DNA from: an uncultured SAR86 cluster bacterium | GTDB taxonomy: Bacteria; Pseudomonadota; Gammaproteobacteria; Magnimaribacterales; D2472 | Direction: 5' to 3' | Assembly (NCBI GenBank): GCA_902558395.1 | Contig: CACEDS010000001.1 | Span: forward strand, 72,180 to 136,179 | Length of the DNA: 64,000 bases | Shown: positions 4,313 through 26,533 of the stretch, one piece after another | Position numbering within the stretch: position 1 is the stretch's first letter | Layout: the number at the start of each line of letters is the position of its first letter | The notes under the pieces: generated by a model | Databases searched by the model: none | What the model saw: only the letters and a program-made list of their open reading frames with translations | Told to the model about the DNA's origin: nothing | Translations under genes and position numbers: made by a program

Positions 4313-4354
4313 CTATAGCACAAGAATTTAAAAACTTATATCATTAGATTTAAC

Positions 4355-4438
4355 TGCAAAGGGGTGGCCTAGCCTGAGATCTCTTAAAAAGAAACCCTTT
4401 GAACCTGATCCATACAATAATGGCGGAGGAATTGCATG
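4355..4438 (+). promoter_or_regulatory. TPP (THI-box) riboswitch, translational type
   Basis: Conserved core read directly: GGGGTG(4361) ... CTGAGA(4374-4379) ... ACCCTTTGAACCTGATC(4394-4410) CCAT-acaata-ATGG GCGGAGGAA. P1 is tgcaa 4355-4359 paired with ttgca 4432-4436. The SD GGAGGA (4425-4430) and the A of the ATG (4436) lie inside the aptamer. Confidence 0.85.
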
Positions 4439-6529
4439 AACACCATTAAAACCTATTTTTTTCTTTTTTTCTTTTCAATTTTTTTAGTTTCAGCTGATGT
4501 TGAAGAGGTTATTGTTCAAGGTGATTGGAGAGATACAAAATTAATTGAAGAGGACTCAAGTGTATTAGTGCTAACCTCGAAAGAAATTAATTCTGCTCCA
4601 ATAAAACATTTTGAGAATTTATCTTACCTAATACCAAACTTAAACTTTGCAGCCAGCGACTCAAGAGCAAGGCATTTTCAAATAAGGGGAATCGGCGAAA
4701 GATCTGGATATGAAAGGACTCCAAATTCAGCCGTTGGTTTTTTAATTGATGATATTGATTATTCTGGCCAGGGAGGAATTGCAACAACTTTTGATGTTGA
4801 TCAAATTGAAGTTCATAGAGGACCACAAGGCTCAAGAATCGGATCAAATGCTATGGCAGGACTTATTTACATAAAAACTAAAGAACCAACAGAAGTATTT
4901 GAAGGAGTTAGTGAAATTACAACAGGTACCTATGGAACTATAAACAGTGGTGTAGCCTTCGGAGGACCATCACAAATTGATGATTTAACATACAGAATTG
5001 CTTTAAGGAAAGATTACTCAGATGGATTTAGAAAAAATTTATTTTCTGGTAAATCAGATACCTCAAAAAAAGATGAATCTACTTTTAGGCTTAAAGCAAA
5101 TTGGAAAGTTAATTCAAAATCAACTTTAAAGTTTTTATTAACTCAAATAAACCTCGATGATCCTGCTGATATTTGGACAATTGATGGCAGTTTAAATACT
5201 CTTTCTGACAGGCCTGGTATGGATTCTCAAAAAACCAATGCTTATGGCATTAGATTCTTCCATATTCTAGAAAATTTTGAATTTCAGAGCTTAACCAGCA
5301 TGACAGATACTGATGTTGTGCTTAGCTATGATGCGGATTGGGGTAATCCTTCAACTCATTCGCCATATATTTATGATTATTTCTCTGAAACTCTAAGATT
5401 TAGAGAAACTATTAGTCAAGAATTTAGACTTTTATCAAATAAAGCTGATTTTAATTCCAATAAAAGATACGAATGGGTTGTTGGAATGAATTTTTTTGAA
5501 TCAAATGAGAAAAATTTAAAAAAAGATGATGGTATTTATGGTGATCCATCAGACCCCTATAGTCCTTATGTGAATGAAAGCTCATCATCAAGTAAATTTG
5601 ATATTCGAAACCTTTCTATTTATGGAAGTTTAAATTACTTAATAAGCGAGTCAACAAAATTTAGCATGGGTCTTCGCTGGGAGAACTCAGAATCAAAATA
5701 TTCAGATTCTTTTGGCGAATCATTTAACCCTTCAGATAAAATTTCGGGTGGCAAGATATCCGTTAATAAAATTTTAGACAAAAATTCTAATATCTTTTTT
5801 AGTATTGCAAGAGGATATAACCAAGGTGGTTTTAATTTAAATCTTGGGCTTGATCCAAATTCAGAGAATAGCAATCTTTATTATGATCCTGAATTTTTAA
5901 CTAATTATGAAATCGGATTTAATTCAAAAATTGAAGAATTAAATCTGAATTTAGCTGCTGTAATTTTTCACTCAGATAGAAAAGATCAACAGGTTTTAAT
6001 ATCAACTCAAGTAGATCTAAATGATCCAAATACGTTTACATTTTTAACCCAAAATGCAGCAGAAGGAACTAACAAAGGAATAGAGTTAGAAATGGACTTT
6101 CAGTTGTCTGAAAACTTAGATATCTTTATTAATTTTGGGCTGCTCAAAACTGAGATTAAAAGTTGGAAATCTCGACCAGAAATTGAGGGTAGAGCGCAAG
6201 CTCATGCCCCTGAAAAAAGTTATGCCATTGGTTTCAACTGGTACCCTTCAGAACAGTCAAGTTTATCATTTGATACGGTGGGTAAAAGTAGCTTTTACTA
6301 TTCTGATTCACATGACAACAAATCAAAATCATATTTCTTATCAAACATAAACTATAGTTATTTTTATGGTCAATGGACTTACTCTATTTGGGGAAGAAAT
6401 ATTTTCGATGAGTACTATTCAACAAGAGGTTTTTACTTTGGAAATGAGGCTCCAAATTTTATTGATACACTTTATGAAAGACATGGTGACCCAAGGCACC
6501 TAGGTGTTACAGTAAGATATGATTTCTAA
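4436..6529 (+). CDS. TonB-dependent outer-membrane receptor (riboswitch-controlled; predicted thiamine or thiamine-precursor uptake)
   Basis: 697 aa with a signal peptide, a TonB-box-like EEVIVQG, a plug domain (IEVHRGPQGSRIGSNAMAGLIYIKTK) and a beta-barrel ending in the terminal aromatic ...VTVRYDF. Confidence 0.9.
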   Translation: MNTIKTYFFLFFFSIFLVSADVEEVIVQGDWRDTKLIEEDSSVLVLTSKEINSAPIKHFENLSYLIPNLNFAASDSRARHFQIRGIGERSGYERTPNSAVGFLIDDIDYSGQGGIATTFDVDQIEVHRGPQGSRIGSNAMAGLIYIKTKEPTEVFEGVSEITTGTYGTINSGVAFGGPSQIDDLTYRIALRKDYSDGFRKNLFSGKSDTSKKDESTFRLKANWKVNSKSTLKFLLTQINLDDPADIWTIDGSLNTLSDRPGMDSQKTNAYGIRFFHILENFEFQSLTSMTDTDVVLSYDADWGNPSTHSPYIYDYFSETLRFRETISQEFRLLSNKADFNSNKRYEWVVGMNFFESNEKNLKKDDGIYGDPSDPYSPYVNESSSSSKFDIRNLSIYGSLNYLISESTKFSMGLRWENSESKYSDSFGESFNPSDKISGGKISVNKILDKNSNIFFSIARGYNQGGFNLNLGLDPNSENSNLYYDPEFLTNYEIGFNSKIEELNLNLAAVIFHSDRKDQQVLISTQVDLNDPNTFTFLTQNAAEGTNKGIELEMDFQLSENLDIFINFGLLKTEIKSWKSRPEIEGRAQAHAPEKSYAIGFNWYPSEQSSLSFDTVGKSSFYYSDSHDNKSKSYFLSNINYSYFYGQWTYSIWGRNIFDEYYSTRGFYFGNEAPNFIDTLYERHGDPRHLGVTVRYDF

Positions 6530-7112
6530 TCTTGTTCATGCTGATTGGATAGAACCAGCGGCAGTTATTCTTGCAATAGCCTATTTATTATTAGCCGTAA
6601 AACAGAACATAAGTTGTTGGTTTGCGGCATTTTTTAGTTCATTATTATATTTCTTTGTAATGTATTCTGCAGGTCTATATATGGAGGCAGGATTACAAAT
6701 ATTCTATTGTGTTATGGCTGTTTATGGGTGGACACAATGGAGAACATCTTTACCAAACAATAAAAAATTTCTCGTAAAAACATGGAATAGAAACCAACAC
6801 ATTAAAGCAATTTCATTGATATTTCTTTTAGCGTTTGCATCTGGCTGGGCGCTTGAAAAATTTACAAATGCTGCCTTACCTTTTATAGACTCTCTTACAA
6901 CTTGGGGGGCAATTGTAACGACATATATGGTCGCAAAGAGGCTTTTAGAAAACTGGATTTATTGGTTTGTAATAGACACAATTTCTGTGTTTTTATTTTA
7001 TTCAAGAGGACTATTCTTAACTTCAATATTATTTTTTGTATACCTAATAATTATTTATTTTGGTTACAAATCTTGGACCGAAATGAAAGATGAAATTGAT
7101 GCAAAAAATTGA
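6519..7112 (+). CDS. pnuT: PnuC-family inner-membrane transporter (PnuT-like, predicted thiamine transporter)
   Basis: 197 aa, 7-TM, with PnuC-type motifs (AYLLLAVKQNISCW, YGWTQW, NWIYWFVID). It overlaps the receptor stop by 11 nt. The thiamine assignment comes only from the riboswitch context. Confidence 0.7.
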   Translation: MISNLVHADWIEPAAVILAIAYLLLAVKQNISCWFAAFFSSLLYFFVMYSAGLYMEAGLQIFYCVMAVYGWTQWRTSLPNNKKFLVKTWNRNQHIKAISLIFLLAFASGWALEKFTNAALPFIDSLTTWGAIVTTYMVAKRLLENWIYWFVIDTISVFLFYSRGLFLTSILFFVYLIIIYFGYKSWTEMKDEIDAKN

Positions 7113-7926
7113 TAAAAAAATTGCTTCAGTCGATCATAAAATTGAAATTATTTCACCTTTAAAAATTGATCTAATTTCTCAAATTTTTCTATGTAATTTT
7201 AATGATATTAAATCTGTAATAAGGGTTGATTTTGATTTGCCAAATTGGTTAAAAAAACAAAGAGCTTTGGAATTTCAGATACTTAATTTTTTAAAAACAA
7301 AAACACAAAATCAAAAAATTTTATATAACGATTTTGATAGAGGAATTCTAATAAGAGAATTTCATGAAGGTAAAGAAATTGTATATTCTGATTTTAGAAG
7401 AAAAGAGAATTTAATTTCTTTGGGTAAAGAAATTAAGAAAGTTCATGAAATAAAAATTGATAACGTCGCAATTAATAATTTTGAAAACCTCATTGAAAAT
7501 TATAGAGACATTCTTAAAAACAAAATTAAAAATAATTGGTATCTAAATCAAGGCTTCAAAATTTTTAATTCTCTTTCTTGTGAAAAAGAGCAAATAATTT
7601 TTTCTCATAATGATTTAAATCGTGAAAATATTTTGTTTAATAAAAAATATTTTTTTATAGATTGGGAGTATGCGTCTGCCAACAGTCCTTATTTTGATTT
7701 AGCTACAATCATTTCCTCTTATGATTTTAATGATGAGGAAATTGGTTATTTATTTGATGGTTACGATAAAAATTTCCCTCTTGACCAAGAAAAATTAAAA
7801 AATTGGGTCAAATTTACTTTTTTTTTAGACTACATATGGAGAAAATGTCTTATTGAAACCACAATGCATGATGAAAAGACACTAAACATAAAGGATTTAG
7901 AAAGAAAGCTAGATATTTTTAAGTAA
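7090..7926 (+). CDS. thiK: APH/choline-kinase-fold small-molecule kinase, ThiK-like (predicted thiamine kinase)
   Basis: 278 aa with the Brenner catalytic motif HNDLNRENILF and the downstream IDWEYA. Size and fold class match thiamine kinase. It overlaps the PnuC-family gene by 23 nt. Confidence 0.6.
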   Translation: MKLMQKIDKKIASVDHKIEIISPLKIDLISQIFLCNFNDIKSVIRVDFDLPNWLKKQRALEFQILNFLKTKTQNQKILYNDFDRGILIREFHEGKEIVYSDFRRKENLISLGKEIKKVHEIKIDNVAINNFENLIENYRDILKNKIKNNWYLNQGFKIFNSLSCEKEQIIFSHNDLNRENILFNKKYFFIDWEYASANSPYFDLATIISSYDFNDEEIGYLFDGYDKNFPLDQEKLKNWVKFTFFLDYIWRKCLIETTMHDEKTLNIKDLERKLDIFK

Positions 7927-9177: not shown

Positions 9178-10374
9178 ATGAAAGTATTATGCGTTTTATA
9201 CGATGATCCAAAAACTGGCATGCCCGAAAAGTATGCACGAGATGATTTACCAAAAATTGATAAATATCCAGATGGTATGACATTGCCGTCTCCCAAGGGC
9301 ATTGATTTTACTCCAGGAGAATTACTTGGATGTGTTTCAGGAGAGTTGGGGCTTAGAAAATTTCTAGAAGATGCTGGACATACATTAGTAGTTACATCTG
9401 ACAAAGATGGTGAAGGGTGTGAAGCAGATAGAGAATTAGTTGATGCTGATATAGTCATATCTCAACCATTCTTTCCTTATTATTTAACTCGTGAAAAAAT
9501 GGAAACCGCTCCAAATCTTAAGATGGCAATAACTGCTGGAATCGGTTCAGACCACGTAGATCTTCAAGGAGCCATGGATCACAACATAGATGTTGTGGAG
9601 GTTACATACTGTAATTCAAGATCTGTAGCAGAGCATATTGTAATGATGATTCTTTCAATGGTTAGGGATTACCATAATCAACACAGGATAGTTAATGAAG
9701 GTGGTTGGAATATAGCTGACGCTGTTCAAAGATCATATGATGTTGAAGGAATGCATGTCGGAACTGTAGCTGCAGGAAGAATAGGTATCGACATGTTAAG
9801 AAAGATGAAACCTTTTGATGTCCATCTGCACTATTTCGACATTCATAAATTACCTGATGAGGTCGAGGCAGAACTAAATCTTACTTATCATGATTCTGTT
9901 GAATCTTTAGTTGCTGTTTGTGATGTGGTTAATATTAGTTGTCCACTGCATCCAAAGACAGAGCACTTATTTAATGATGAGATGATCGCAAAAATGAAAC
10001 GCGGTGCTTATATTGTTAACACTGCTAGAGGAAAGATTTGTGACAAAGATGCAATTGCAAGAGCTTTAGAATCTGGCCAGTTAAGCGGTTATGCTGGAGA
10101 TGTTTGGTTCCCGCAACCAGCTCCTAATGATCATGTTTGGAGAACAATGCCTAATCATGGGATGACTCCTCATACTTCTGGAACATCATTATCCGCTCAA
10201 GCTAGGTATGCTGCTGGTGTAAGAGAAATACTTGAGTGTTTCTTTTCTGGAGAGCCAATTAGAGAGCCATATTTAATTGTTAAAGACGGTGATCTTGCAG
10301 GAATGGGAGCTCATTCTTATACAAAAGGTACAGCAACCGACGGATCGGAAGAAGCTGCAAATTATAAAAAATAA
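9178..10374 (+). CDS. fdh: NAD+-dependent formate dehydrogenase (metal-independent, D-2-hydroxyacid dehydrogenase family)
   Basis: 398 aa, near-colinear with Pseudomonas sp. 101 FDH as I recall it: MKVLCVLYDDP...YARDDLPKID...IDFTPGELLG.VSGELGLRKFLE..GHTLVVTSDKDG...TAGIGSDHVDL...GTVAAGRIG...PLHPKTEH...YAGDVWFPQPAP. Strong SD (AAGGGGGAG) upstream. Confidence 0.95.
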   Translation: MKVLCVLYDDPKTGMPEKYARDDLPKIDKYPDGMTLPSPKGIDFTPGELLGCVSGELGLRKFLEDAGHTLVVTSDKDGEGCEADRELVDADIVISQPFFPYYLTREKMETAPNLKMAITAGIGSDHVDLQGAMDHNIDVVEVTYCNSRSVAEHIVMMILSMVRDYHNQHRIVNEGGWNIADAVQRSYDVEGMHVGTVAAGRIGIDMLRKMKPFDVHLHYFDIHKLPDEVEAELNLTYHDSVESLVAVCDVVNISCPLHPKTEHLFNDEMIAKMKRGAYIVNTARGKICDKDAIARALESGQLSGYAGDVWFPQPAPNDHVWRTMPNHGMTPHTSGTSLSAQARYAAGVREILECFFSGEPIREPYLIVKDGDLAGMGAHSYTKGTATDGSEEAANYKK

Positions 10375-10377
10375 TTT

Positions 10378-11346
10378 TTAGAAATTTTGCAGTCTTGATT
10401 TAATTATCTCATCAGCCTGGGACATAATATTATTTATTAAGTCCTGGACTGTTGGGATGTCATTAACAAGCCCAGCTACCATTCCACAAGACCAAGCGCC
10501 TGCTTCCATGGTTCCTTCATGCATAATTTTTGGGTAAACACCAGCAACTTCATCAAGAATATCTTCAAACTTGAGATCATCGCCTAATCTTTTTTCTTTT
10601 TCCATCAGTCTTTCCACTGCTTCATTATTAAGAACTCTTTCTGTATTTGTTAATGATCTCATAATCAATCGAGTATCAAGTTCTGTTGCATTAACAATAG
10701 CTTCTTTAACATTTTGATGAACTGGAGCATCTTGTGTCGCTATAAACCTTGTTCCCATATTCATTCCTTCTGCTCCAAGTGCCATAGCAGCAACCAAACT
10801 TCTACCGTCAGCCATTCCGCCTGATGCCACGAACGGGATTTCTAATTCTTCGGCGGCTCTAGGCAATAAAATAAAATTGGGAATATCATCTTCACCTGGG
10901 TGACCACCACATTCAAAACCATCAACTGATACAGCATCACAACCAATTGATTGAGCTTTTATAGAGTGTCTAACAGAAGTACATTTATGAATAACTTTTA
11001 TTCCAGCTTCCTTAAGAGCAGGTAAATATTCTGCAGGGTTTCTTCCAGCAGTTTCAACTACTGGCACTCCTGCATCGATTATTTCTTTGATCAATCCAGG
11101 ATAATCCGGGGGTGTTAGAGAGGGTAGAAAAGTTAAATTTACTGCAAAAGGCTTATCTGTCATTTCTTTACATCTTGCAATCTCATTTGCTAATTTTTCA
11201 GGTGTACCTTGAGTTAGACCAGTAATAGTTCCCAGCCCACCTGCATTAGAAACAGCTGCAGCAAGTTCAGCAAATCCTACATGATGCATGCCACCTTGAA
11301 TAATTGGATGCTCAATACCAAATAGTTCTGTTATTTTAGTTTTCAT
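10378..11346 (-). CDS. nitronate monooxygenase / FabK-like FMN-dependent oxidoreductase (NMO family)
   Basis: MKTKITELFGIEHPIIQGGMHHVGF... is the canonical NMO N-terminus. I place the start at 11346, preceded by AAGGAGAG, not at the track's 11469, which would run 134 nt into the upstream SDR gene. Confidence 0.85.
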   Translation of the reverse strand: MKTKITELFGIEHPIIQGGMHHVGFAELAAAVSNAGGLGTITGLTQGTPEKLANEIARCKEMTDKPFAVNLTFLPSLTPPDYPGLIKEIIDAGVPVVETAGRNPAEYLPALKEAGIKVIHKCTSVRHSIKAQSIGCDAVSVDGFECGGHPGEDDIPNFILLPRAAEELEIPFVASGGMADGRSLVAAMALGAEGMNMGTRFIATQDAPVHQNVKEAIVNATELDTRLIMRSLTNTERVLNNEAVERLMEKEKRLGDDLKFEDILDEVAGVYPKIMHEGTMEAGAWSCGMVAGLVNDIPTVQDLINNIMSQADEIIKSRLQNF

Positions 11347-12148
11347 TATTCTCTCCTTTATTTTGATCAGCCAAACTTTGATAAAATTCTTCAAATTGTT
11401 TTTGCAATCTTTGCATTCCAGATATCCATCTATCTCTATCGTTGCCTTTTCTTTGAACATATTCACCAACTTCTTTATGAGGCAATACTAAGAATCTTTC
11501 ATTCTCAATGGCATCTAAAACATCTTTAGCGACTATATCGGGCTCAAGCATTCCATCCACTCCAGCAACTCCAGCACCTTGAGCAGTCATAGCGGTTCTT
11601 ACTGCTTGTGGGCAGAGACATGAAACGCCAATTCCTTTATGACCATATGTAATTTTTACCCATTCAGCAAAACTTACTGCCGCTGATTTAGTAACAGCAT
11701 ATTGGGCGGCACCTATTTGAGATAAGAGGCCTGCAGCTGATGCTGTATTCATTAAATAGCCTTCACCCCTTTCAAGCATTTGGGGCAATACATGCCTTGC
11801 AGCATGAACATGAGACATTACATTAACTCCCCAAGTATTATTCCATTCTTCAGATGTAGTCTCTAAGAGCATTGGAGTTCCGCTAATACCTGCATTCGAA
11901 CAAAATATGTCTATTCCTCCTGAATATTCATTAGCCTTTTCAATAACATTAATTATGTCTTGTTCATTTGATACATCAGCTGCTATAGCAATACCATTAA
12001 TTTTTTCTGCGATTTCCTTAGCACCATCTTCATTCATATCTACACAAATAATAGATTGAGCTCCACTAGCATGAAATTCTTCACATAGCGCATATCCAAT
12101 GCCACTAGCAGCACCAGTAACTACCACTCTTTTATTTTTTATTTCCAT
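11336..12148 (-). CDS. short-chain dehydrogenase/reductase (SDR)
   Basis: 270 aa with TGAASGIGYAL (TGxxxGxG) and YAVTKSA (YxxxK). Confidence 0.85.
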   Translation of the reverse strand: MEIKNKRVVVTGAASGIGYALCEEFHASGAQSIICVDMNEDGAKEIAEKINGIAIAADVSNEQDIINVIEKANEYSGGIDIFCSNAGISGTPMLLETTSEEWNNTWGVNVMSHVHAARHVLPQMLERGEGYLMNTASAAGLLSQIGAAQYAVTKSAAVSFAEWVKITYGHKGIGVSCLCPQAVRTAMTAQGAGVAGVDGMLEPDIVAKDVLDAIENERFLVLPHKEVGEYVQRKGNDRDRWISGMQRLQKQFEEFYQSLADQNKGENNEN

Positions 12149-12152
12149 ATTT

Positions 12153-13190
12153 TTATCCTAATAATATTTCACACCCAGTTCCATCAAGAAAAGTTTTAAC
12201 TCTTGACTGATCATTTTCATTAAGCGCAGCAAACTCCTCTTTAATCCACTTTAAACATTTAGCTTGATAAGGAAAGGCTCTTTGTTTCCATAAAGACCCA
12301 TCAATTTCGATCTCCCATGTTTCCTCACCCTTCATAATTGCATTTGCATTTGCAAGCAAAGCTGGAACATACATCCTGCCAAACTCTTTCATGATTTCTT
12401 TTAAAGAATCAGGGCTTTCTTCAAGAGGAATCCAGTTGCTATTGTCAACATCATGACCAGACAAGTCAGCCATTACATCTTGCCAAGAAACAAGTCTTAA
12501 TGCATTATCGTAGGCAATTTTTCTTGATGTAGGTTCAAACCCAATGAGCTGAGTTAATTGCCCATAGATAGCAAAATCAGCAGAAGAAGGCTTTTCACCA
12601 AAAAGAAATTTACTAATAGATAAGTGATCATCCATCAATTTTAGGAATCTTTTATAACTAGCATCGATTAAACCAGCTGTTGTATCATTTGAGCCTACAA
12701 CCCATAACCTTCCAGTCTGTCTATCATGAACATATTTTTTTGCATCCTTTAGTATTTCATCAGGCAAATTCACAGCAAGATCACTCAATGGAAGGATGGT
12801 TGATGCATTATCAGCATCTTCATCAAAATACCATCTGTAATGGAACATATATTTAGTAACCCATTCATCTCCAAAATCTTCTAATAAATAATTTATGAAA
12901 GATAAAGCAGGGTCCTCAGGTAATAATTTTCTATCTGGATACTCGTTTTCAAATCTTCTAATGATTGGGGTGGTATCAGTAGTTGCTTTTAATTTACCAC
13001 TTTCATCTTCTAAAAGCAGAGTAGGAAGTAAAACAGGTTTTGGTGGCTCTATTCCTTCTAGCCTGCTTAATCTTCCTGGAACATCTCCCATGAAAACTTC
13101 ATAGGAAATATGGCGATACCTCAAAATAGAAATCATTTTCTGTGTGTAAGGTGAGGCAGGGACCCCAAAAACTTTTATTTTTTCTTTCAC
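12153..13190 (-). CDS. atypical long glutathione S-transferase-like protein
   Basis: 345 aa. N-terminal thioredoxin-like GST domain (VFGVPASPYTQKMISILRYRHISYEV), a central GST-C-like helix region (SSADFAIYGQLTQL) and an extra C-terminal domain of about 100 aa. Confidence 0.6.
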   Translation of the reverse strand: MKEKIKVFGVPASPYTQKMISILRYRHISYEVFMGDVPGRLSRLEGIEPPKPVLLPTLLLEDESGKLKATTDTTPIIRRFENEYPDRKLLPEDPALSFINYLLEDFGDEWVTKYMFHYRWYFDEDADNASTILPLSDLAVNLPDEILKDAKKYVHDRQTGRLWVVGSNDTTAGLIDASYKRFLKLMDDHLSISKFLFGEKPSSADFAIYGQLTQLIGFEPTSRKIAYDNALRLVSWQDVMADLSGHDVDNSNWIPLEESPDSLKEIMKEFGRMYVPALLANANAIMKGEETWEIEIDGSLWKQRAFPYQAKCLKWIKEEFAALNENDQSRVKTFLDGTGCEILLG

Positions 13191-13220
13191 TATTTCTCCT
13201 ATTTTTATTTGAATAATCTA

Positions 13221-14858
13221 TTAGTTAGACCAATAAATATATTCGTCACCTTCTTCGTATTCTTTTCCATCATATTTATCTATCATTATTGGAGCATCAT
13301 ATGATGAAGGGAATAAAGGATTTTTTTGTTCTGAATTAAACTCAACCAAAAGCTCTTCAATTTGTTTTACTACATCCGGATAACTATCAACTAGATTATT
13401 TTTTTCTGTTGGGTCCGCTGAAGTATCAAACAACCATCGAAAATTTTCATTTTTACTAATTATATATTTCCAGTTTTCATGAAGAACTGCTTGATGATTT
13501 CCAGATCGCCAAAAAAGTGTCTTGTGAGGCTTAGAAGAGCTATTATTATTTATGAAGGGTAGTAAATCTACACCATCTATTTTATTAGATAATTCAATAC
13601 CCGCAGCCTTTGCAATAGTAGGAAAAATATCAAAATGATGAACAGCATTATCTGATTTTTTTCCAGGGTTGATTTCATCAGGCCAGCTAACAATATAAGG
13701 AACTCTTATCCCTCCTTCAAAGAAGCTTATCTTCCATCCTCTATAGGGTTTATTAATATCCTCTAATTCAATGTAATTAGCCCCGCCATTATCGCTTGTA
13801 AATATGATTAAAGTCTTACCATATATATCTAATTCTTTGAGCTTTTCAATAATCTTTCCAACACTTCTATCTAAAGCATTTATCATTCCTGAGTAAACTT
13901 TAAGATTATGACCGTGCATATGACTCATTTGTTCATAATCGCTTCTTAGTGCCTGCAGTGGATTATGAATTGCCCAATGACTGAGATATAAAAAGAAAGG
14001 TCTATTTCTATTATTTTCAATTACTTTTAATGCTTCATCAGTATAGTAATCTGTAACATATTTATCAGGCGCAAATATCTCACCTTCATTAAAAGTTGCG
14101 GAATATTGACCATTACTCCATACCATTTTATCTATTCTTGTATCAAACTTTGCGTTTACAACATCAGGATGATTCTCAGGCAAATAGAGGGGCCCAACTA
14201 AACCTAGAGAGTCTTGAAAGCCTTGATTCAGTGGATCCATGCCATAAGCATGACCAAGGTGCCATTTTCCAATATGAGCTGTGTAATATCCAGCATCTTT
14301 TAAAACTTCTGCTATGGTTGTTTGTTCTGTTGGCATTCCCTGTTCCATAAAAGGTGGCATTTTTGAAACCACCTCTCGGTCAATTCTTTGTTTCAATTCA
14401 AAATTATCTTCTTCGGCAAGCCAGCCCAGAACTGTTCTGCCTAAAGAAGGTATTGGAGTAAATTCATAGCCAAATCTAGTTGGGTATTTCCCAGTCATTA
14501 TCGATGCTCTAGATGGAGCACAAGTTGCATTAGCAGCATAACCTCTAGTAAATAGAATTCCACTTTTTGCTAATGCATCAATATTTTTAGTTTGAAGGGT
14601 TCTATCAGCTGCTCCACCATTATGAATAGATATATCGTTATAGCCCATATCATCGGCCAGGATTAAAATTATATTTGGTCTATTATCATCAACTGGTGTA
14701 TCTGGACCCTTAGACCAAGTGGTTGGAATATTTTCTTGAACTGTAACATTTGATATTTTGGGTATAGCCCATACAAGAATATTTACTTTATATTCCCAGG
14801 CAACAAAACCAGAAACTATTAATACCACTAAAGAAAGCATGAGTTTTTTAGCCATCAC
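13221..14858 (-). CDS. exported or membrane-anchored formylglycine-dependent sulfatase (arylsulfatase family)
   Basis: 545 aa with an N-terminal signal anchor (LMLSLVVLIVSGFVAW), LADDMGYNDIS, the CxPxR maturation motif CAPSRASIMTG and GKWHLG. Confidence 0.9.
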   Translation of the reverse strand: MMAKKLMLSLVVLIVSGFVAWEYKVNILVWAIPKISNVTVQENIPTTWSKGPDTPVDDNRPNIILILADDMGYNDISIHNGGAADRTLQTKNIDALAKSGILFTRGYAANATCAPSRASIMTGKYPTRFGYEFTPIPSLGRTVLGWLAEEDNFELKQRIDREVVSKMPPFMEQGMPTEQTTIAEVLKDAGYYTAHIGKWHLGHAYGMDPLNQGFQDSLGLVGPLYLPENHPDVVNAKFDTRIDKMVWSNGQYSATFNEGEIFAPDKYVTDYYTDEALKVIENNRNRPFFLYLSHWAIHNPLQALRSDYEQMSHMHGHNLKVYSGMINALDRSVGKIIEKLKELDIYGKTLIIFTSDNGGANYIELEDINKPYRGWKISFFEGGIRVPYIVSWPDEINPGKKSDNAVHHFDIFPTIAKAAGIELSNKIDGVDLLPFINNNSSSKPHKTLFWRSGNHQAVLHENWKYIISKNENFRWLFDTSADPTEKNNLVDSYPDVVKQIEELLVEFNSEQKNPLFPSSYDAPIMIDKYDGKEYEEGDEYIYWSN

Positions 14859-15954
14859 TTAGCTCCACAATGATTCCTTCATTTGGATTAATATCTCCAC
14901 CTACAAATTTCTCATACATAGATATAAAATCTTCAAGGCCAATAATTTTTTTCACTTGCATCCAATCAGTGCTTTGATTAGATCTAGTTTTCATAAATTC
15001 ATTTATCTTTTGGTTATAGCCTTCATAACCCCAATCTTTTACTCGTTTTTGAATATGAGCTGGAGCAAAAAAGAATTCTGTTCTTTCTCTAAGCATGGCC
15101 TGACCCAGAGCATCTTCAGCAGTAACCTCATTATCCCAATGAGTCATCCCAACTGTCAGGCATTTAAGCATTTTGTCACCAAGTGACCCATGAAGAGTGC
15201 CCAGAATCTCGCGGCTTCCCGCCATATCAATCATTACAGACTTAAGATTAAAATTTATATCTAATAGACAATCATATGTAATCACTTCATCATAACAATC
15301 TAAGTTTTTAACAAAATCTAGATTCTTGTTAGAAGTAAGGCCTAATATTGATGGAGCACCAGAAGCTTCTTGAAGCCCCTGAGCAACACCAATCGCAGTC
15401 TTACTTGATGCACTAACTATAATAATTTGATCAGCACCGAAATAGCCCCCATCTTTCAATACATCACATATACAAAAAGATGTTATGTGCAATGGAAATA
15501 ATAATGATCTAATGTCATCTAATGAGTTATCGTAATTAACTTCCCCAGACAATCTTAAATAGTTGTTATATGTCGCTGGTAGATCTATACGATGTTCTTT
15601 GCCATCTACAAATCCTTGATTTGTAACTTTGATAGGCTTTAAATTTAAGATATCACCTGGAGGAAAATACCCAAACAATCTTTCTCCAACAATTAATTCT
15701 TTGACATTTGATTTAATGATTTTTGCAAATCCCCATACTGGTATGCAACCCCATTCATTATTAGCATCTTCGGTTGTTTTGAAGAATTGCCAATAACCTA
15801 TCGTGTCACCAGCTACTCCATACGTAACATTGTTTGAAGTGAAAGCAAAACTTTCTATTGATACTGAAATTTCTTCTTCTTGAATATCAGAGTTTTTTGT
15901 TTCAACGATTCTGGTTTTTGAAAGATCACTCTTTAATGTTTGTAATTGCCTCAA
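14848..15954 (-). CDS. DUF2855-like protein (MDR/alcohol-dehydrogenase-like fold, function unknown)
   Basis: 368 aa. The N-terminal SIESFAFTSNNVTYGVAGDTIGYWQFF block resembles DUF2855 family members as I recall them. Its stop overlaps the sulfatase start by 11 nt. Confidence 0.5.
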   Translation of the reverse strand: MRQLQTLKSDLSKTRIVETKNSDIQEEEISVSIESFAFTSNNVTYGVAGDTIGYWQFFKTTEDANNEWGCIPVWGFAKIIKSNVKELIVGERLFGYFPPGDILNLKPIKVTNQGFVDGKEHRIDLPATYNNYLRLSGEVNYDNSLDDIRSLLFPLHITSFCICDVLKDGGYFGADQIIIVSASSKTAIGVAQGLQEASGAPSILGLTSNKNLDFVKNLDCYDEVITYDCLLDINFNLKSVMIDMAGSREILGTLHGSLGDKMLKCLTVGMTHWDNEVTAEDALGQAMLRERTEFFFAPAHIQKRVKDWGYEGYNQKINEFMKTRSNQSTDWMQVKKIIGLEDFISMYEKFVGGDINPNEGIIVELSDG

Positions 15955-16364
15955 AATTTATATTCCTCAACCTCTATATTAAGCTGTCCAGCAAGTCCTG
16001 CCACTCTGTGTTTGTTGCTTTCTAGATAGTCAGGATCTGTAATCATTTTGAGCATTGCTTTTTTACTAGGATATTTAGCAATAAACGTTTTATCCCAAAG
16101 CTCTTCCACTTCTCCAAGCATTAGGCGATTTATAGATCCGCCAAAAGATACTTTGCCACCGACTTTTTTCAAATGTTCAATAACCTCTTCACTATATATG
16201 GCATATGCTTGCTCGCCAGTTAGGTCAGTATCTCGACCGTCCTCGTATTCAGCTTTTTCTTTAAACTTCAAAAGATTAATCATGACGATAGGTTTTTCAT
16301 TGTCACCTTCAAGAAATCCCTCCATTTGTTCTTTGGTAGGATGAACGCTATTTTTATATTTCAT
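15951..16364 (-). CDS. DUF1330 (dimeric alpha/beta-barrel) protein
   Basis: 137 aa. The PIVMINLLKFKEKAEY ... WDKTFIAKYPSKKAMLKM pattern resembles DUF1330. It overlaps the downstream gene by 4 nt. Confidence 0.55.
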   Translation of the reverse strand: MKYKNSVHPTKEQMEGFLEGDNEKPIVMINLLKFKEKAEYEDGRDTDLTGEQAYAIYSEEVIEHLKKVGGKVSFGGSINRLMLGEVEELWDKTFIAKYPSKKAMLKMITDPDYLESNKHRVAGLAGQLNIEVEEYKF

Positions 16365-16365
16365 T

Positions 16366-16980
16366 TTATTCTCCTAAGGTTATAGCTTTTTGAAATGCTG
16401 GTCGTGCTTCAATTCGGGCTACATAATTTTTAATGTGCTCCATTTCGTCAGGAACACATCCTAATCTATTAGCCATAAAACATGAGTGGCCAAGCATTAG
16501 ATCAGCAGCGGAAAAATTACCAACTAAGTAATCTTTATCTGCAAGGTTTTCATTAACTGGCCCAAGAGATTTAGTTATTAGGTTTTGTGCTTGCTTTAAA
16601 ACATTCTCATTTCTTCTATCCGGCGGTAAAAGAATTGTTTGAACTACGACCTGATTCATTGGAGGCATGACCATGCCCTCACAGTAATGAAACCATTGCA
16701 GATAATATGGAAACTCTTCAGAATCTGAATTCGGTTTAAGTCCACCATCTTTATGACGCTCAAGGATATATTGAATGATGGCTCCAGATTCAAATATAGA
16801 AATATCACCATCCTCAAGAACTGGCACTCTGCCCAGTGCATGTCTAGATCTATGTTCCGGTGATTTCAAACCTTCTTTTGTAAAAGGCATGATATTTACA
16901 TCATAATCTAGCCCTAATTCTTCTAGTAGCCAAACCACTCTTCCAGCCCTAGTACCTGGTGTAAAATGAACTTTTAACAT
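16366..16980 (-). CDS. glutathione S-transferase (copy A of tandem pair)
   Basis: 204 aa with a GST N-domain ([23 protein letters not shown]) and a C-domain. Confidence 0.85.
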   Translation of the reverse strand: MLKVHFTPGTRAGRVVWLLEELGLDYDVNIMPFTKEGLKSPEHRSRHALGRVPVLEDGDISIFESGAIIQYILERHKDGGLKPNSDSEEFPYYLQWFHYCEGMVMPPMNQVVVQTILLPPDRRNENVLKQAQNLITKSLGPVNENLADKDYLVGNFSAADLMLGHSCFMANRLGCVPDEMEHIKNYVARIEARPAFQKAITLGE

Positions 16981-17032
16981 AGTATTCTCCTTGTTTCTAT
17001 TAAATCACTCTTCTATAAAATTAATTGATACA

Positions 17033-17713
17033 TTAGATAGTAACTGTCCTTTTCTTCATTGAACGAAATGACCACCACCGATAAATTTTATGGAAAAATG
17101 TTTCACCCATTGATATAGCTTTTTGAAATGCAGGTCTTGCTTCAATGCGAGCTAAATAATTTTTAATGTTCTCCATTTCATCAGGAACACATCCTAATCT
17201 GTTAGCCATAAAACATGAGTGACCAAGCATTAGATCAGCAGCAGAAAAATCACCAATCAAATAATCTTTGCCCTCAAGATTCTTGTTTACAGGCCCTAAT
17301 GATTTAGTTAATAGATTTTTAGCTTGTTTTAAGACATTTTCATCTCTTCTATTGGATGATAATAGAATAGCTTGAACTACAATTTGATTCATAGGAGGCA
17401 TAACCATTCCCTCACAGTAATGAAACCATTGCAGATAATATGGAAACTCTTTAGAGCTTACATCAGGCTTTAAACCTCCGTCTTTATGTCGTTCAAGAAT
17501 ATATTGAATGATGGCACCAGATTCAAATATTGATATATCACCATCTTCTAGAACTGGAACCCTTCCAAGAGCATGACGCGTCCTATGTTCTGGTGACTTA
17601 AGACCTTTTTTGGTAAAAGACATGATATTAATATCATAATCTAGACCTAGCTCTTCAAGAAGCCAAACTACTCTTCCTGCTCGAGTACCTGCTGTAAAGT
17701 GAATTTTTAACAT
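17033..17713 (-). CDS. glutathione S-transferase (copy B of tandem pair, 22-aa C-terminal extension)
   Basis: 226 aa, about 86 percent identical by eye to copy A over 204 aa. It reads on past the position of copy A's stop (..MGETFFHKIYRWWSFRSMKKRTVTI). Confidence 0.85.
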   Translation of the reverse strand: MLKIHFTAGTRAGRVVWLLEELGLDYDINIMSFTKKGLKSPEHRTRHALGRVPVLEDGDISIFESGAIIQYILERHKDGGLKPDVSSKEFPYYLQWFHYCEGMVMPPMNQIVVQAILLSSNRRDENVLKQAKNLLTKSLGPVNKNLEGKDYLIGDFSAADLMLGHSCFMANRLGCVPDEMENIKNYLARIEARPAFQKAISMGETFFHKIYRWWSFRSMKKRTVTI

Positions 17714-17724
17714 AAGATTGCTTC

Positions 17725-18408
17725 TTATTTTTTTACCATTTTTTGTGCGTTTTTTATAAATTCCTTTTCGTCTTCTTCATTTTTTAAAATACTTTCTCTA
17801 TCTACTGGAACTTTAGTTCCCTTAATCATCCCTGGCTGCTCATACATTCTATTTTTCCAATCTTCTAGATGGACTAGTCCATCAATTGATACACCTGACC
17901 AATTATGGGTTCTAACCCAGCACCAATTAGCAATGTCTGCAATCGAATATTCTCCTGCTAGCCATTCATTGCTAGCTAGATGAGTATCTAAAACTTCAAA
18001 AAGACGCCTTGATTCATTTTGATATCTATCTATAGCTGGCTGAATTTTTTCAGGAAAGTACCTAAAAAAAACATTTGCTTGGCCCATCATGGGACCGATA
18101 CCACCCATTTGGAACATAAGCCATTCAGTTACTTTTGCTCTTCCTTTATCATCATTTGGGATAAGCTTGCCTGCCTTTTCTGCAAGATAAAGCATTATTG
18201 CACCAGACTCGAAGATCGAAAGGTCATCATTATCAGTATCAACAATAGCTGGAATTCTGCCATTAGGACTAATTTTTAAAAATTCAGGTTTTTTTTGCTC
18301 ACCTTCAGCAAGGTTTACTGAATGCACTTCGTAGGGCATTTCTAATGCCTCCAATAAGCATGAGACTTTATGTCCGTTAGGTGTTGAGGCTGTATATAAA
18401 TGAATCAT
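17725..18408 (-). CDS. Nu-class glutathione S-transferase (YfcG-like disulfide-bond reductase type)
   Basis: [57 protein letters not shown] parallels the E. coli YfcG N-terminus (TPNGHK, ISPN.KIPAIVD). Confidence 0.85.
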
Positions 18409-18414
18409 AAAAAA

Positions 18415-19482
18415 TTACCCTTTAATAAAATCAATTAATATCTTAGATAGTGGTTCTGCTTTAGTCCATTGAAAAAAATGACCTCCACCAATATGAGGAG
18501 CACTTTTTGCATTTGGAGCCATTCTCAGAACATCTCTCTCAGCACCATTTGTCACAGGATCATTGCCTGCAAAAACAGCTAAAAAAGGTTTTTCGGAAGT
18601 TTTAAAAAACTCTCTTGCTTTTCTCTGAGCATCTAAAGACTGATCAGGTATCATTGGAACTTGACTAGGCATTGCTCTAGGACCCATTTTATATGATGGA
18701 TTGGGGAAGGGTGCTTCATAAGCTTTCATCAAATCAGTATAGAACGGTGATATTTTTTCTAGTCCTATTTTTTGTAACAGAATATGAATATAGGCTTTGA
18801 CCGGAGATTTCCTAAATTGACTCTCCATTTGAAAGGAGTTAAAAAAACCAATTGGAAGATTTTTTGAATCCCAGGTAAATTTCTGCCAGTACATAAATTT
18901 TGTCGCCATATGCTTGTTTTTATCCATTTTGCTAACTTCTTTAGTCATTCCAAAGAAACTTATTTTTTTATTCGATGCCCTAAACTCATTTACTTCATCT
19001 ATAACTTCTTGAGGAGCATTAGGGTTATACGGAAGACCCGTATTACCCATAGCGATTTTTATAAATCTATCTGGATCTGCAGCCACCATTCTCAAACCAA
19101 TTAATCCACCCCAATCTTGTCCAAAAAAAGTTAAATTTTGAAAATCATTTTTCTTTAACCACTCTCCCATCCAATCAACTTGATTTTGATAAGAATAGTC
19201 TTCTCTGGCAGCTGGCTTATCTGACTTACCGTAACCAACTAAGTCAGGAGCTATAACTCTTATTCCTGCTTCGGTTAGAAATGGAATCATTCTGGCATAA
19301 AGATAGCTCCATACCGGTTGGCCATGCATAGCAAGCAAAATGGGACCATCTTTAGGGCCTTCATCAATATGATGAACTCTTACGATAGTTCCATCTTTAG
19401 TTTCTATATTTGTATAAACCGGCTCAAAAGGATAATTTTTGATATCCTCAAAGCATGAATCGGGTGTTCTTAGTACTTTCAT
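18415..19482 (-). CDS. haloalkane dehalogenase, HLD-I (DhlA-like), with enlarged cap domain
   Basis: 355 aa, alignable to Xanthobacter DhlA as I recall it: RTPDxxF...YPF.P.Y, HG.P.WSYLY..MIP...AG.RVIAPD..G.GKSDKP, nucleophile elbow QDWGG, acid in GNDPV, His in GGHFFQ. Confidence 0.8.
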   Translation of the reverse strand: MKVLRTPDSCFEDIKNYPFEPVYTNIETKDGTIVRVHHIDEGPKDGPILLAMHGQPVWSYLYARMIPFLTEAGIRVIAPDLVGYGKSDKPAAREDYSYQNQVDWMGEWLKKNDFQNLTFFGQDWGGLIGLRMVAADPDRFIKIAMGNTGLPYNPNAPQEVIDEVNEFRASNKKISFFGMTKEVSKMDKNKHMATKFMYWQKFTWDSKNLPIGFFNSFQMESQFRKSPVKAYIHILLQKIGLEKISPFYTDLMKAYEAPFPNPSYKMGPRAMPSQVPMIPDQSLDAQRKAREFFKTSEKPFLAVFAGNDPVTNGAERDVLRMAPNAKSAPHIGGGHFFQWTKAEPLSKILIDFIKG

Positions 19483-19512
19483 TTATTTTTTCTACTCCCC
19501 ACTAGATTAAAA

Positions 19513-19536
19513 AGTCTAATATAAAAATTATAGACT
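19513..19536. promoter_or_regulatory. inverted repeat AGTCTA-N12-TAGACT in the divergent LysR/operon control region
   Basis: 6-bp arms at 19513-19518 and 19531-19536. An overlapping TTATA-N7-TATAA sits at 19528-19544. It lies 31-54 nt upstream of the dehalogenase start. Candidate LysR-type site only. Confidence 0.3.
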
Positions 19537-19625
19537 TCATATAACAAAAATAAGCTTATGTATTGATTATATTTAATCACCCGTAGTATATTGTGCTCAT
19601 ATTTAAACAATGGGATTAAATTACA

Positions 19626-25786: not shown

Positions 25787-26533
25787 TTATGCACTAGATT
25801 CTTTGACTGCAACATTCCAAATGATTAAACCAAATAGAATCTTGTTAACAAAGTCAGCAAGGTTATAAATTAAGTTTAGATTCATAGCTGATGATCCATC
25901 ACCTACTAGGTAGCCTGAAGCATATCCAAGTGGGTAAATTGCCCAACCAACTATAATAATCCACATCATTGTGTTGTATGCAGATTGAACCGCAGGACTT
26001 GCTGTATTGCATGCAGACTTACCTTCACCAGCCCATAGCTCATAGATCATGTAAATCCAAGCTAACATTCCAACAATGAAAGCAGGCATAGCTGCCATTA
26101 TTCCAGCTTCTCCCATATATCCGAATACAAGCATTACAAGAGAACCAATTAATAGTTTCTTAAATAAAGAACCTGCAACATTGGTTGCAGCAGCAAGTAT
26201 TAAGTAGAATTCACATATTAATAAAGGCACTGTTAGTAACCAGTCAATATATCTGAATACAGTTGGTGTTTCTCCAGTCTCTACCCAGACTCCTCTCATG
26301 TACAAGTAATGCCAAAAAGCAATACCAGTAACAAGACCGGATACTGTTAATGAAGTCTTCCATTTAGCTGAAACTCTATCTCTTTCAATAAAAAAGAATA
26401 CAGTAGAAGCTAACAGCGCAGCAGTAACCAACCAAAAAGATACACCAGTGTAATCACTAGCATCTAGGTCGCCACCACTAGCAGCAAAAGAAGGAAGCGC
26501 AATAACACTACCCAAGATTAATAAATATTTCAT
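25787..26533 (-). CDS. proteorhodopsin, green-absorbing light-driven proton pump
   Basis: 248 aa, 7 TM, with H75, D97 (RYIDWLL), L105, E108 (ICEF), D227 and K231 (DFVNKILFG). Colinear with, and about 90 percent identical to, the SAR86 EBAC31A08 proteorhodopsin as I recall it. Confidence 0.97.
   Translation of the reverse strand: MKYLLILGSVIALPSFAASGGDLDASDYTGVSFWLVTAALLASTVFFFIERDRVSAKWKTSLTVSGLVTGIAFWHYLYMRGVWVETGETPTVFRYIDWLLTVPLLICEFYLILAAATNVAGSLFKKLLIGSLVMLVFGYMGEAGIMAAMPAFIVGMLAWIYMIYELWAGEGKSACNTASPAVQSAYNTMMWIIIVGWAIYPLGYASGYLVGDGSSAMNLNLIYNLADFVNKILFGLIIWNVAVKESSA

Follow-up and report, generated by a model that had tools for sequence, protein, structure and literature searches.

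In Sphingobium japonicum UT26, the Lin pathway for γ-hexachlorocyclohexane (γ-HCH) combines the dehalogenase LinB, the short-chain dehydrogenase/reductase (SDR) LinC, the glutathione-dependent reductive dechlorinase LinD and the LysR-family regulator LinR (PMC7119470). In the Lig β-etherase pathway of sphingomonads, which employs a LigD-type SDR, the LigE/F glutathione transferases (GSTs) and a Nu-class GST, alcohol oxidation activates the adjacent carbon for substitution by glutathione, which the Nu-class GST then strips off again (PMC5892560). Isoprene degraders encode two GSTs, IsoI and IsoJ, together with the SDR IsoH. The 1,2-dichloroethane pathway of Xanthobacter autotrophicus GJ10, which begins with the dehalogenase DhlA, involves a pyrroloquinoline quinone-dependent alcohol dehydrogenase, an aldehyde dehydrogenase and a haloacid dehalogenase, dispenses with GSTs and is not encoded in a single operon. 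Here, we compare with these systems a block of ten genes in a 64,000-nucleotide stretch of DNA from an uncultured SAR86 cluster bacterium (contig CACEDS010000001.1, positions 72,180 to 136,179; hereafter, the window). From first to last, the block encodes an HLD-I haloalkane dehalogenase, a Nu-class GST, the paralogous GST-B and GST-A, a DUF1330 protein, a DUF2855 protein, an S1 sulfatase, a 345-residue GST-like protein (GST345), an SDR and an NMO/FabK-like flavoprotein (NMO). We find that it belongs to a gene cluster that recurs throughout SAR86 and very probably represents a conserved functional unit, and we regard it as a catabolic cluster of the organohalide or xenobiotic type that has a genuine chance of representing a new pathway.

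In composition, the nearest analogue is the Lin pathway. As judged by predicted functions, the two have in common a hydrolytic dehalogenase, alcohol oxidation by an SDR, GST-type thiolytic dechlorination and a LysR regulator. However, LinB is an HLD-II enzyme while the cluster dehalogenase belongs to HLD-I, homologues of LinA and LinE were not seen in the cluster, and the Lin pathway includes no sulfatase, DUF1330 protein, DUF2855 protein, Nu-class GST or NMO. Moreover, the Lin substrate is a synthetic pesticide, whereas the SAR86 cluster is of ancient origin and occurs widely among ocean plankton. The lin genes, which are plasmid-borne in some strains, are also dispersed rather than gathered in one block (PMC4824263). 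With the DhlA pathway (PDB ID 1edb), the cluster shares the HLD-I signature, comprising an Asp-His-Asp triad and a Trp-Trp halide site, and the hydrolysis of a substrate to an alcohol followed by dehydrogenation; the dehalogenases differ in their caps (see below). The combination of an SDR, conjugating GSTs and a Nu-class GST recalls the Lig pathway (PMC5892560), but lignin aryl ethers are improbable substrates of the cluster, the Lig pathway lacks a dehalogenase and a sulfatase, and no LigE/F-type sequence match was found among the cluster GSTs. Isoprene degraders likewise encode GSTs and an SDR together, but the cluster contains no isoprene monooxygenase, its remaining genes differ and its match to IsoI falls far below the cut-off.

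The initial annotation had held that no characterized pathway has this composition. This statement holds for the full set of genes, and a literature search yielded no published description of the cluster; it does not hold for the combination of dehalogenase, SDR, GST and LysR regulator, which is found in the Lin pathway (PMC7119470). A paper describing a SAR86 isolate noted the high GST copy number without mentioning the cluster (PMC11582366).

Related loci were collected via two independent anchors. Anchoring on DUF2855, with one genome per species, gave 80 loci, 50 of which had at least 6 kb on both sides and were counted; anchoring on the dehalogenase in metagenome contigs gave 31 countable loci, each flanked by 4 kb or more in both directions. 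A pooled set comprised the 63 dehalogenase clusters with enough flank from both collections. Taxon labels are used as written in the records. Altogether, the cluster recurred across SAR86 (Magnimaribacterales) in 160 related loci, including clades that share only 60-70% identity. In the 50 DUF2855-anchored loci, DUF1330 (88%), the dehalogenase (78%), GST345 (76%) and GST-A (72%) were most frequent, followed by the Nu-class GST (64%), the sulfatase (62%), NMO (58%) and the SDR (44%). The dehalogenase-anchored metagenome loci gave a similar inventory, with DUF1330 in 30 of 31, GST345 in 27, GST-A and the Nu-class GST in 26 each, DUF2855 in 25 and the sulfatase in 21. Over the related clusters, frequencies ranged from 64 to 84% for the Nu-class GST, from 76 to 89% for GST345, the position of which within the cluster shifts between relatives, and from 44 to 61% for the SDR. 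The constant heart of the cluster consists of the long-cap HLD-I dehalogenase and DUF1330, which DUF2855 and GST345 join nearly always; the Nu-class and Phi/Beta-like GSTs, a sulfatase-type hydrolase, an NAD-type SDR and the NMO flavoprotein are frequent modules.

It is the conservation of gene order in relatives that lifts the cluster above chance. Loss of this order had been named in the initial annotation as an outcome that would refute a pathway; among the enzyme genes, the order is kept across SAR86. The same annotation had described the operon as LysR-associated and linked to β-oxidation-type enzymes. In the window, the LysR gene, a TonB-dependent receptor, an acyl-CoA dehydrogenase and a formate dehydrogenase (FDH) do occupy the positions reported, but their association with the cluster is confined to the closest relatives. 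As these four genes occur near DUF2855 in only 6-10% of the 50 loci, and TetR regulators are found elsewhere, we consider the LysR association and the β-oxidation link to be traits of one clade rather than of the cluster.

One of the closest relatives of the window locus, found in the SAR86 single-cell genome AG-447-J17 (L001), is 95-100% identical. The window clade has the order [S1 type B]-HLD-GSTNu-GSTA-DUF1330-DUF2855-[S1 type A]-GST345-SDR-NMO, the two sulfatase types being explained below. In the SAR86E type (L024), a divergent TetR gene is followed by NMO2-GST345-HLD-GSTNu-GSTA-DUF1330-DUF1330-u160-DUF2855-sulfatase-u125-MBL-SDR-NMO, in which u160 designates a membrane protein of about 160 residues without a Pfam match and MBL a membrane-anchored, RNase-Z-like hydrolase; both occur in many related clusters (for example, L024 9493-9984 and 13105-14193; L069 9490-9993; L079 5709-7243). 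The cultured isolate HIMB1674 (L069; about 1,095-1,116 kb of CP151794.1) carries the cluster in the order MBL, then DUF1330-GST345-HLD-NMO2-u160-DUF2855-sulfatase-NMO. In genomes labeled OCS116, Rhodobiaceae or Alphaproteobacteria (such as L079 and L065), MBL-u160-DUF1330-HLD-GST345 are arranged divergently from DUF2855, with genes for an epoxide hydrolase and a SnoaL-like protein in the vicinity. Further genes seen in relatives encode a DJ-1/PfpI protein and a DsbA-like/kappa-GST-type protein. The OCS116 dehalogenases (L079, L065) are 88-89% identical to those of the HIMB1674-type SAR86 clade (L069, L070, L073), whereas the dehalogenases of different SAR86 clades are 68-78% identical to each other; the alphaproteobacterial DUF2855 encoded beside this dehalogenase is only about 67% identical to its SAR86 counterpart. 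Because the OCS116 dehalogenase is closer to one SAR86 clade than SAR86 clades are to each other, these sequences suggest mosaic horizontal exchange between SAR86 and OCS116/Rhodobiaceae, or else mis-binning.

Within the cluster, the halide site of the dehalogenase, which is intact and selected, argues most strongly for a carbon-halogen bond as a real substrate. The protein scored 322.3 bits against NF002043 (cut-off 265) and did not reach the equivalog models of other subfamilies, including HLD-II; its best PDB matches were 6f9o, 5esr and 4mj3 (E 1e-70 to 1e-75). The catalytic pentad (D123, W124, W199, D308 and H335) is invariant in 49 cluster-linked homologues, as is the nucleophile elbow Q122-D123-W124-G-G, which contains the Asp-Trp pair characteristic of HLD-I. 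H335 (in GGGHF) and D308 (in G-x-D-P-V) align to the matching motifs of 6f9o and 5esr, and W199 (in F-M-Y-W-Q-K) aligns with the cap tryptophan of 5esr, the second halide-stabilizing tryptophan. While residues 1-154 and 250-353 align to solved HLD-I enzymes, residues 155-249 do not. The cap region is about 46 residues longer than in DhlA or any other solved HLD-I enzyme (total length 355 residues compared to 297-325), so that the window dehalogenase departs from the cap length usual in HLD-I. The long cap is retained in every cluster-linked homologue and is at the same time the least conserved part of the protein (56% compared to 79-83%). This long-cap subfamily, which the cluster defines and which may be of interest to enzyme engineers, occurs almost only in the cluster context. 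We give an organohalide an even chance of being a physiological substrate.

The sulfatase contains the motif C113-A-P-S-R-A-S-I-M-T-G, conserved in 29 related sequences, and is the only one of the ten proteins with an N-terminal hydrophobic segment (KD15 2.73 at residue 6). It is therefore predicted to be exported or membrane-anchored, and the remaining nine proteins look cytoplasmic, given that a hydrophobic signal or anchor is confined to the sulfatase. It did not reach the equivalog models of named sulfatases such as arylsulfatase and choline sulfatase (best NCBIfam score 161 bits, 481 needed). Its nearest PDB entries are 6prm, an exo-4S-κ-carrageenan sulfatase (281 bits), and 9fo1 (230 bits), and a match to steryl sulfatase is partial and weaker than those to carrageenan sulfatases. 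Alkyl sulfates and chlorosulfolipids had been put forward as possible substrates in the initial annotation. As the nearest solved relatives of the enzyme are carrageenan, i.e. sugar-sulfate, sulfatases, we do not favor alkyl sulfates, and we retain a chlorosulfolipid as no more than a special case of low probability.

Orthologues of the window sulfatase (type A, with CAPSR) are 68-97% identical among relatives, and in 23 related loci from several SAR86 clades, the type A gene overlaps the DUF2855 stop codon by 1-7 nt. A paralogue (type B, with CSPSR; 45-50% identity) is located upstream of the dehalogenase gene in a clade without type A. Even where NMO and FDH proteins are 99-100% identical, SAR86 genomes can differ in their S1 paralogue and in its position (L003 5549-7177 compared to window 13221-14858); judging from these sequences, the sulfatase has evidently been swapped within the cluster between near-identical SAR86 genomes. 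For the MBL hydrolase of relatives, the best solved match is 8gyg (E 4.8e-19), to which the depositors gave the name "Arysulfatase". Counting S1 sulfatases together with MBL arylsulfatase-like genes, 60 of the 63 pooled dehalogenase clusters encode at least one. Three sulfatase-type genes have thus been recruited: S1 type A next to DUF2855, S1 type B in front of the dehalogenase gene, and the MBL protein. These three independent recruitments argue for hydrolysis of a sulfate ester, or a chemically similar step, as part of the process; we hold the case for sulfate-ester removal as part of the same process to be evenly poised.

Among the GSTs, the Nu-class protein matches the PDB entries 4eci (E 4e-88) and YfcG (3gx0; E 7.5e-52), and it scored 183.7 bits against the YfcG equivalog model NF010579 (cut-off 332), so that it would be a member of the class rather than an orthologue of YfcG. 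Glutathionyl ketones are substrates of Nu-class GSTs, which act on them as glutathione lyases; YfcG and YghU of Escherichia coli are examples (PMC5892560). The closest solved structures to GST-A are plant Phi-class GSTs, and GST-A is 80-97% identical across SAR86. GST-A and GST-B form a tandem duplication (16366-17713) with about 80% DNA identity, and GST-B is confined to the window and its nearest relatives (L001, L081, L082 and L103). The initial annotation had counted four GSTs; there are indeed four genes, but effectively three GST types, because GST-B is a strain-level tandem duplicate.

GST345 has an invariant S13-P14-Y15 at the position of the tau/omega "SPF/CPF" motif, along with conserved G-site residues and conserved C312 and C340, and its matches to solved structures are weak and tau/omega-like only. 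This pattern predicts a serine-type enzyme that would conjugate rather than deglutathionylate. Against the IsoI model NF049950, it scored a weak 23.5 bits (cut-off 300), and a profile search for homologues returned the same close relatives only. We considered GST345 as a LinD-like protein because of its approximately equal length, LinD having a mass of 38.4 kDa (PMC7119470), and rejected this assignment for lack of detectable similarity. In a tblastn search of 72,556 plasmids, GST345 gave two GST-family matches, in Microbulbifer and Pseudomonas, neither of which is annotated as linD. A GST345 homologue of 37% identity is located on a plasmid of the sponge-associated Microbulbifer sp. MKSA007 (L168; CP128431.1, 7807-9795); it is annotated as two coding sequences and may be frameshifted. 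An adjoining α/β-hydrolase was examined as a possible dehalogenase and dismissed, as it is a Ser-type enzyme.

The SDR has the motifs T-G-A-A-S-G-I-G and S137...Y150-x-x-x-K as well as Asp37 at the end of β2, and because of this Asp, it is predicted to be NAD-dependent under the SDR classification rules. NMO remained below the cut-off of the FabK equivalog TIGR03151 (261.7 bits compared to 453.1). It is 85-100% identical to its relatives where the other cluster genes are 60-70% identical, and thus behaves as a conserved anchor gene.

For the DUF2855 protein, PF11017 was the sole Pfam match, with neither ADH_N nor ADH_zinc_N being recognized. An exact-sequence look-up of the window protein returned no record, a profile search of PDB sequences found nothing, and no mention of DUF2855 was found in a literature search. 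An AlphaFold2 model based on a 103-sequence alignment from a 50%-identity library reached a pLDDT of 94.2 and a pTM of 0.92; it replaced a first model built with 19 close homologues (pLDDT 61, low TM scores). All of the top 50 Foldseek matches were medium-chain dehydrogenase/reductase (MDR) enzymes or PA1648, the best being PA1648 and the double-bond reductases PTGR1 and CurA (E 2e-15, TM 0.6-0.7); NADPH-dependent double-bond reductases, plant DBRs included, predominated. The model, a check that the initial annotation had proposed, confidently places DUF2855 with double-bond reductase-type MDR folds, and the protein would accordingly comprise a GroES-like and a Rossmann domain. It shares this two-domain fold with MDR alkenal/one reductases (PTGR1/LTB4DH, CurA, plant DBRs, PA1648), but at only 12-16% identity, without an MDR sequence-profile match and with S-A-S-S-K-T in place of the glycine-rich nucleotide-binding loop. 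Elsewhere in the family, a 501-residue protein (P0001) contains two DUF2855 stretches, and DUF2855 is fused to an SRPBCC (Polyketide_cyc2) domain in P0280 and to DUF4386 in P0325, without other fusion partners; these fusions are suggestive of hydrophobic ligands, no more. The DUF1330 protein matches 3dca (RPA0582), a structural genomics entry (E 6e-25). For DUF1330 and DUF2855, both uncharacterized, the cluster supplies a functional context and, for the latter, a confident structural model.

Based on these results, we tentatively suggest, at somewhat less than even probability, that the window carries a strain version of a conserved, mosaic SAR86 cluster for the catabolism or detoxification of halide- and sulfate-bearing organic compounds. 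Its substrates would be organic molecules with good leaving groups, a halide and often a sulfate ester. The anchored or exported S1 sulfatase would take off sulfate outside the cytoplasm, and in the cytoplasm, the dehalogenase would convert an sp3 carbon-halogen bond to an alcohol and halide. The SDR could then oxidize the resulting alcohols with NAD+, and the serine-type and Phi-like GSTs could substitute glutathione for any activated leaving groups that remain. As in the Lig pathway, the Nu-class GST might act as a lyase that removes the glutathionyl group as oxidized glutathione, regenerating the carbon skeleton, while DUF2855 and possibly NMO might reduce enone or enal double bonds made by oxidation and elimination. 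In the window clade, the block is probably co-transcribed and LysR probably controls it. This particular order of steps is doubtful. We consider it unlikely that the cluster represents a hitherto unknown multi-enzyme route by which SAR86 and, as a result of gene exchange, OCS116-type bacteria strip halide and sulfate from natural marine organohalogens or organosulfates, with DUF1330 and DUF2855 as new, dedicated enzyme families.

Such a function would be of consequence, as SAR86 ranks among the most abundant bacterial groups in ocean surface waters and little is known of its substrates. Much organic matter carrying halogens or sulfate, climate-relevant halocarbons among it, is made by marine algae and photochemistry, and to our knowledge, the organisms and enzymes that consume it have largely not been identified. 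An order-wide cluster that includes a dehalogenase with an intact halide site is a concrete candidate for such a consumer; if the proposal is true, an abundant surface-ocean bacterium would be a major biological sink for natural organohalogens. Because HIMB1674, the only cultured SAR86 strain, carries a version of the cluster, experiments on induction, halide release and sulfate release are feasible.

Several observations weigh against the proposed halide- and sulfate-processing function. Missing from the cluster are an aldehyde dehydrogenase, a haloacid dehalogenase and a transporter, and a glycoside hydrolase is missing as well, although the closest kin of the sulfatase are carrageenan sulfatases (S1_19/S1_16 type). 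About one-third of the clusters have no S1 sulfatase, and u160 and the MBL hydrolase, common in relatives, are absent from the window. In GST-A, a glycine is aligned with the Ser that opens the Phi "STN" motif, and DUF2855 has the invariant S181-A-S-S-K-T186 instead of a glycine-rich motif in the loop that joins its first Rossmann strand and helix. Distant DUF2855 members are found in unrelated contexts (with a cupin; with an FAA hydrolase and a TonB receptor; with an SDR and HxlR), so the family overall is not tied to dehalogenases. NMO is more conserved than the rest of the cluster, as expected of a housekeeping neighbor, and regulators and flanking genes differ between clades. Short same-strand gaps are found throughout the window (median about 5 nt; 52 nt or less in 21 of 31 non-cluster pairs), and as they occur genome-wide, packing is weak evidence for an operon. 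Finally, for most haloalkane dehalogenases, we know of no established natural substrate.

Some of these observations would be accommodated by an electrophile-detoxification island, in which the enzymes, kept together for co-regulation, act in parallel on many alkylating or electrophilic compounds in sunlit surface water, such as halocarbons, alkyl or aryl sulfates, enals and quinones, without a gain of carbon or energy. The mosaic, clade-variable content, with DJ-1/PfpI, DsbA-like/kappa-GST-type and, in OCS116, epoxide hydrolase genes in relatives, the difference in regulators between clades and the lack of a transporter or a link to central metabolism are all in keeping with such an island, as is the high GST copy number, a general trait of SAR86 (PMC11582366). 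However, a set of parallel enzymes does not readily explain why the core gene order is strictly conserved, why the translational coupling of DUF1330, DUF2855 and sulfatase is kept over large evolutionary distances or why a dedicated long-cap dehalogenase subfamily is almost confined to the cluster; in the window clade, the adjacent TonB receptor and acyl-CoA dehydrogenase also argue against it. We therefore regard a pure detoxification island as doubtful.

Sulfatase-type genes are near-universal in the cluster, and the window enzyme resembles carrageenan and, more weakly, steryl sulfatases, which brings into view a sulfated, non-halogenated substrate, such as a sugar, glycoside or sterol, with the Asp-His-Asp triad and anion site of the dehalogenase acting on another leaving group or an ester. 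The great expansion and low conservation of the dehalogenase cap would fit this explanation, and the SAR86 isolate paper proposed steroids and other hydrophobic compounds as substrates of the GSTs (PMC11582366). Yet both halide-stabilizing tryptophans and the full pentad are invariant, the dehalogenase passes the curated cut-off for haloalkane dehalogenases, and the cluster encodes neither a glycoside hydrolase nor a steroid-ring enzyme, which together render a non-halogenated substrate improbable.

The true NAD-dependent FDH that converges on the cluster end, together with an HLD-I (DhlA-type) dehalogenase and several GSTs, could instead indicate the oxidation of C1/C2 halocarbons, with methyl halides and dihalomethanes (CH2Br2, CH2ClI, CH3I) passing via methanol or formaldehyde and glutathione adducts to formate, and by FDH to CO2. 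Small halomethanes and haloethanes are substrates of DhlA-type enzymes, and the oxidation of formaldehyde by way of glutathione relies on an MDR enzyme and an α/β-hydrolase. However, FDH adjoins the cluster in the closest relatives only (10% of the loci anchored on DUF2855 and 14% of those pooled), the size of the enlarged cap points to larger substrates, DUF2855 is nearer to zinc-free double-bond reductases than to class III alcohol dehydrogenase, and the sulfatase would be left without a role; we consider this route equally improbable. That unrelated genes merely lie side by side in a streamlined, gene-dense genome is barely credible: short same-strand gaps are normal in the window and conservation as neighbors does not extend to LysR, TonB receptor, acyl-CoA dehydrogenase and FDH, but the core recurs in 160 loci, via two independent anchors, in SAR86 clades of 60-70% identity and in another class, so that synteny has already largely refuted chance for eight or nine of the ten genes.

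The features discussed are collected in Table 1. The ten minus-strand open reading frames together span exactly 10378-19482, and Pfam and NCBIfam bear out each of the labels given to them in the initial annotation. From dehalogenase to NMO, the junctions measure +6, +11, +52, +1, -4, -11 (-8 from the ATG), +30, +4 and -11 nt. The DUF1330 gene overlaps the start of DUF2855 by 4 nt, the sulfatase gene overlaps the DUF2855 stop codon, and the NMO gene most likely starts at ATG 11346 rather than TTG 11469. The range of gaps is therefore as first reported, -11 to +52 nt, but three junctions overlap instead of four.

Table 1. Genes and control region of the SAR86 cluster and its immediate neighbors (window coordinates)
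Feature	Position	Strand	Remarks
HLD-I haloalkane dehalogenase, 355 aa	18415..19482	-	First cluster gene; NF002043
Nu-class (YfcG-like) GST, 227 aa	17725..18408	-	NF010579, PDB matches
GST-B, 226 aa	17033..17713	-	Tandem paralogue of GST-A, 22-aa C-terminal extension
GST-A, 204 aa, Phi/Beta-like	16366..16980	-	Pfam GST_N and GST_C
DUF1330 protein, 137 aa, RPA0582 type	15951..16364	-	PF07045
DUF2855 protein, 368 aa, TTG start	14848..15954	-	PF11017, 303 bits
Cys-type S1 (formylglycine) sulfatase, 545 aa	13221..14858	-	PF00884 E 7e-53, CAPSR motif
GST345 (345-aa GST-like protein), GTG start	12153..13190	-	Pfam GST_N_3, weak GST_C matches
Classical SDR, 270 aa	11336..12148	-	PF00106 E 6e-42
NMO/FabK-like FMN flavoprotein, 322 aa from ATG 11346	10378..11346	-	Last cluster gene; PF03060 E 9e-59
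Divergent LysR-family regulator, 297 aa	19626..20519	+	Pfam HTH_1 and LysR_substrate
Divergent control region, 143 nt	19483..19625	.	Promoter-like site 19547-19518, minus strand, for the cluster
NAD-dependent FDH, convergent	9178-10374	+	Ends 3 nt from the NMO stop codon

The block had been called almost certainly one transcript. Its genes do share one strand with short gaps and no internal terminator, but the same packing genome-wide deprives this argument of much of its weight. Conservation of gene order in distant relatives, a further mark of an operon, extends to the enzyme genes and not to LysR, TonB receptor, acyl-CoA dehydrogenase or FDH. We consider a single transcript of the ten genes fairly probable. 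Promoter-like and terminator-like matches in the window were not commoner than in shuffled sequence, and an Rfam scan revealed no regulatory RNA in or beside the cluster. With FDH ending so close to the NMO stop codon, no room is left for a terminator between the two genes. Between the dehalogenase and LysR genes, positions 19564-19579 form a perfect inverted repeat of 6 bp (TGATTA-N4-TAATCA), a candidate for a LysR box. LysR adjoins the cluster in the closest relatives only, its place being taken by TetR in SAR86E-type clusters, and the TonB-dependent receptor and acyl-CoA dehydrogenase lie beyond LysR in the window.

Further away from the cluster, a thiamine pyrophosphate (TPP) riboswitch (RF00059, 66.2 bits) was found at 4350-4448 on the plus strand, directly before a gene for a TonB-dependent receptor (4436-6529), which is followed by genes for a PnuC/NMN-transporter-family protein (6519-7112) and a choline/thiamine-kinase-like protein (7090-7926). 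By its gene content, the region 4350-7926 looks like an operon under riboswitch control that would serve to take up and salvage thiamine or one of its precursors and that includes an outer-membrane receptor of its own. On the other side, a proteorhodopsin-type gene (25787-26533, minus strand; PF01036 E 1e-43) is located about 6 kb from the cluster.

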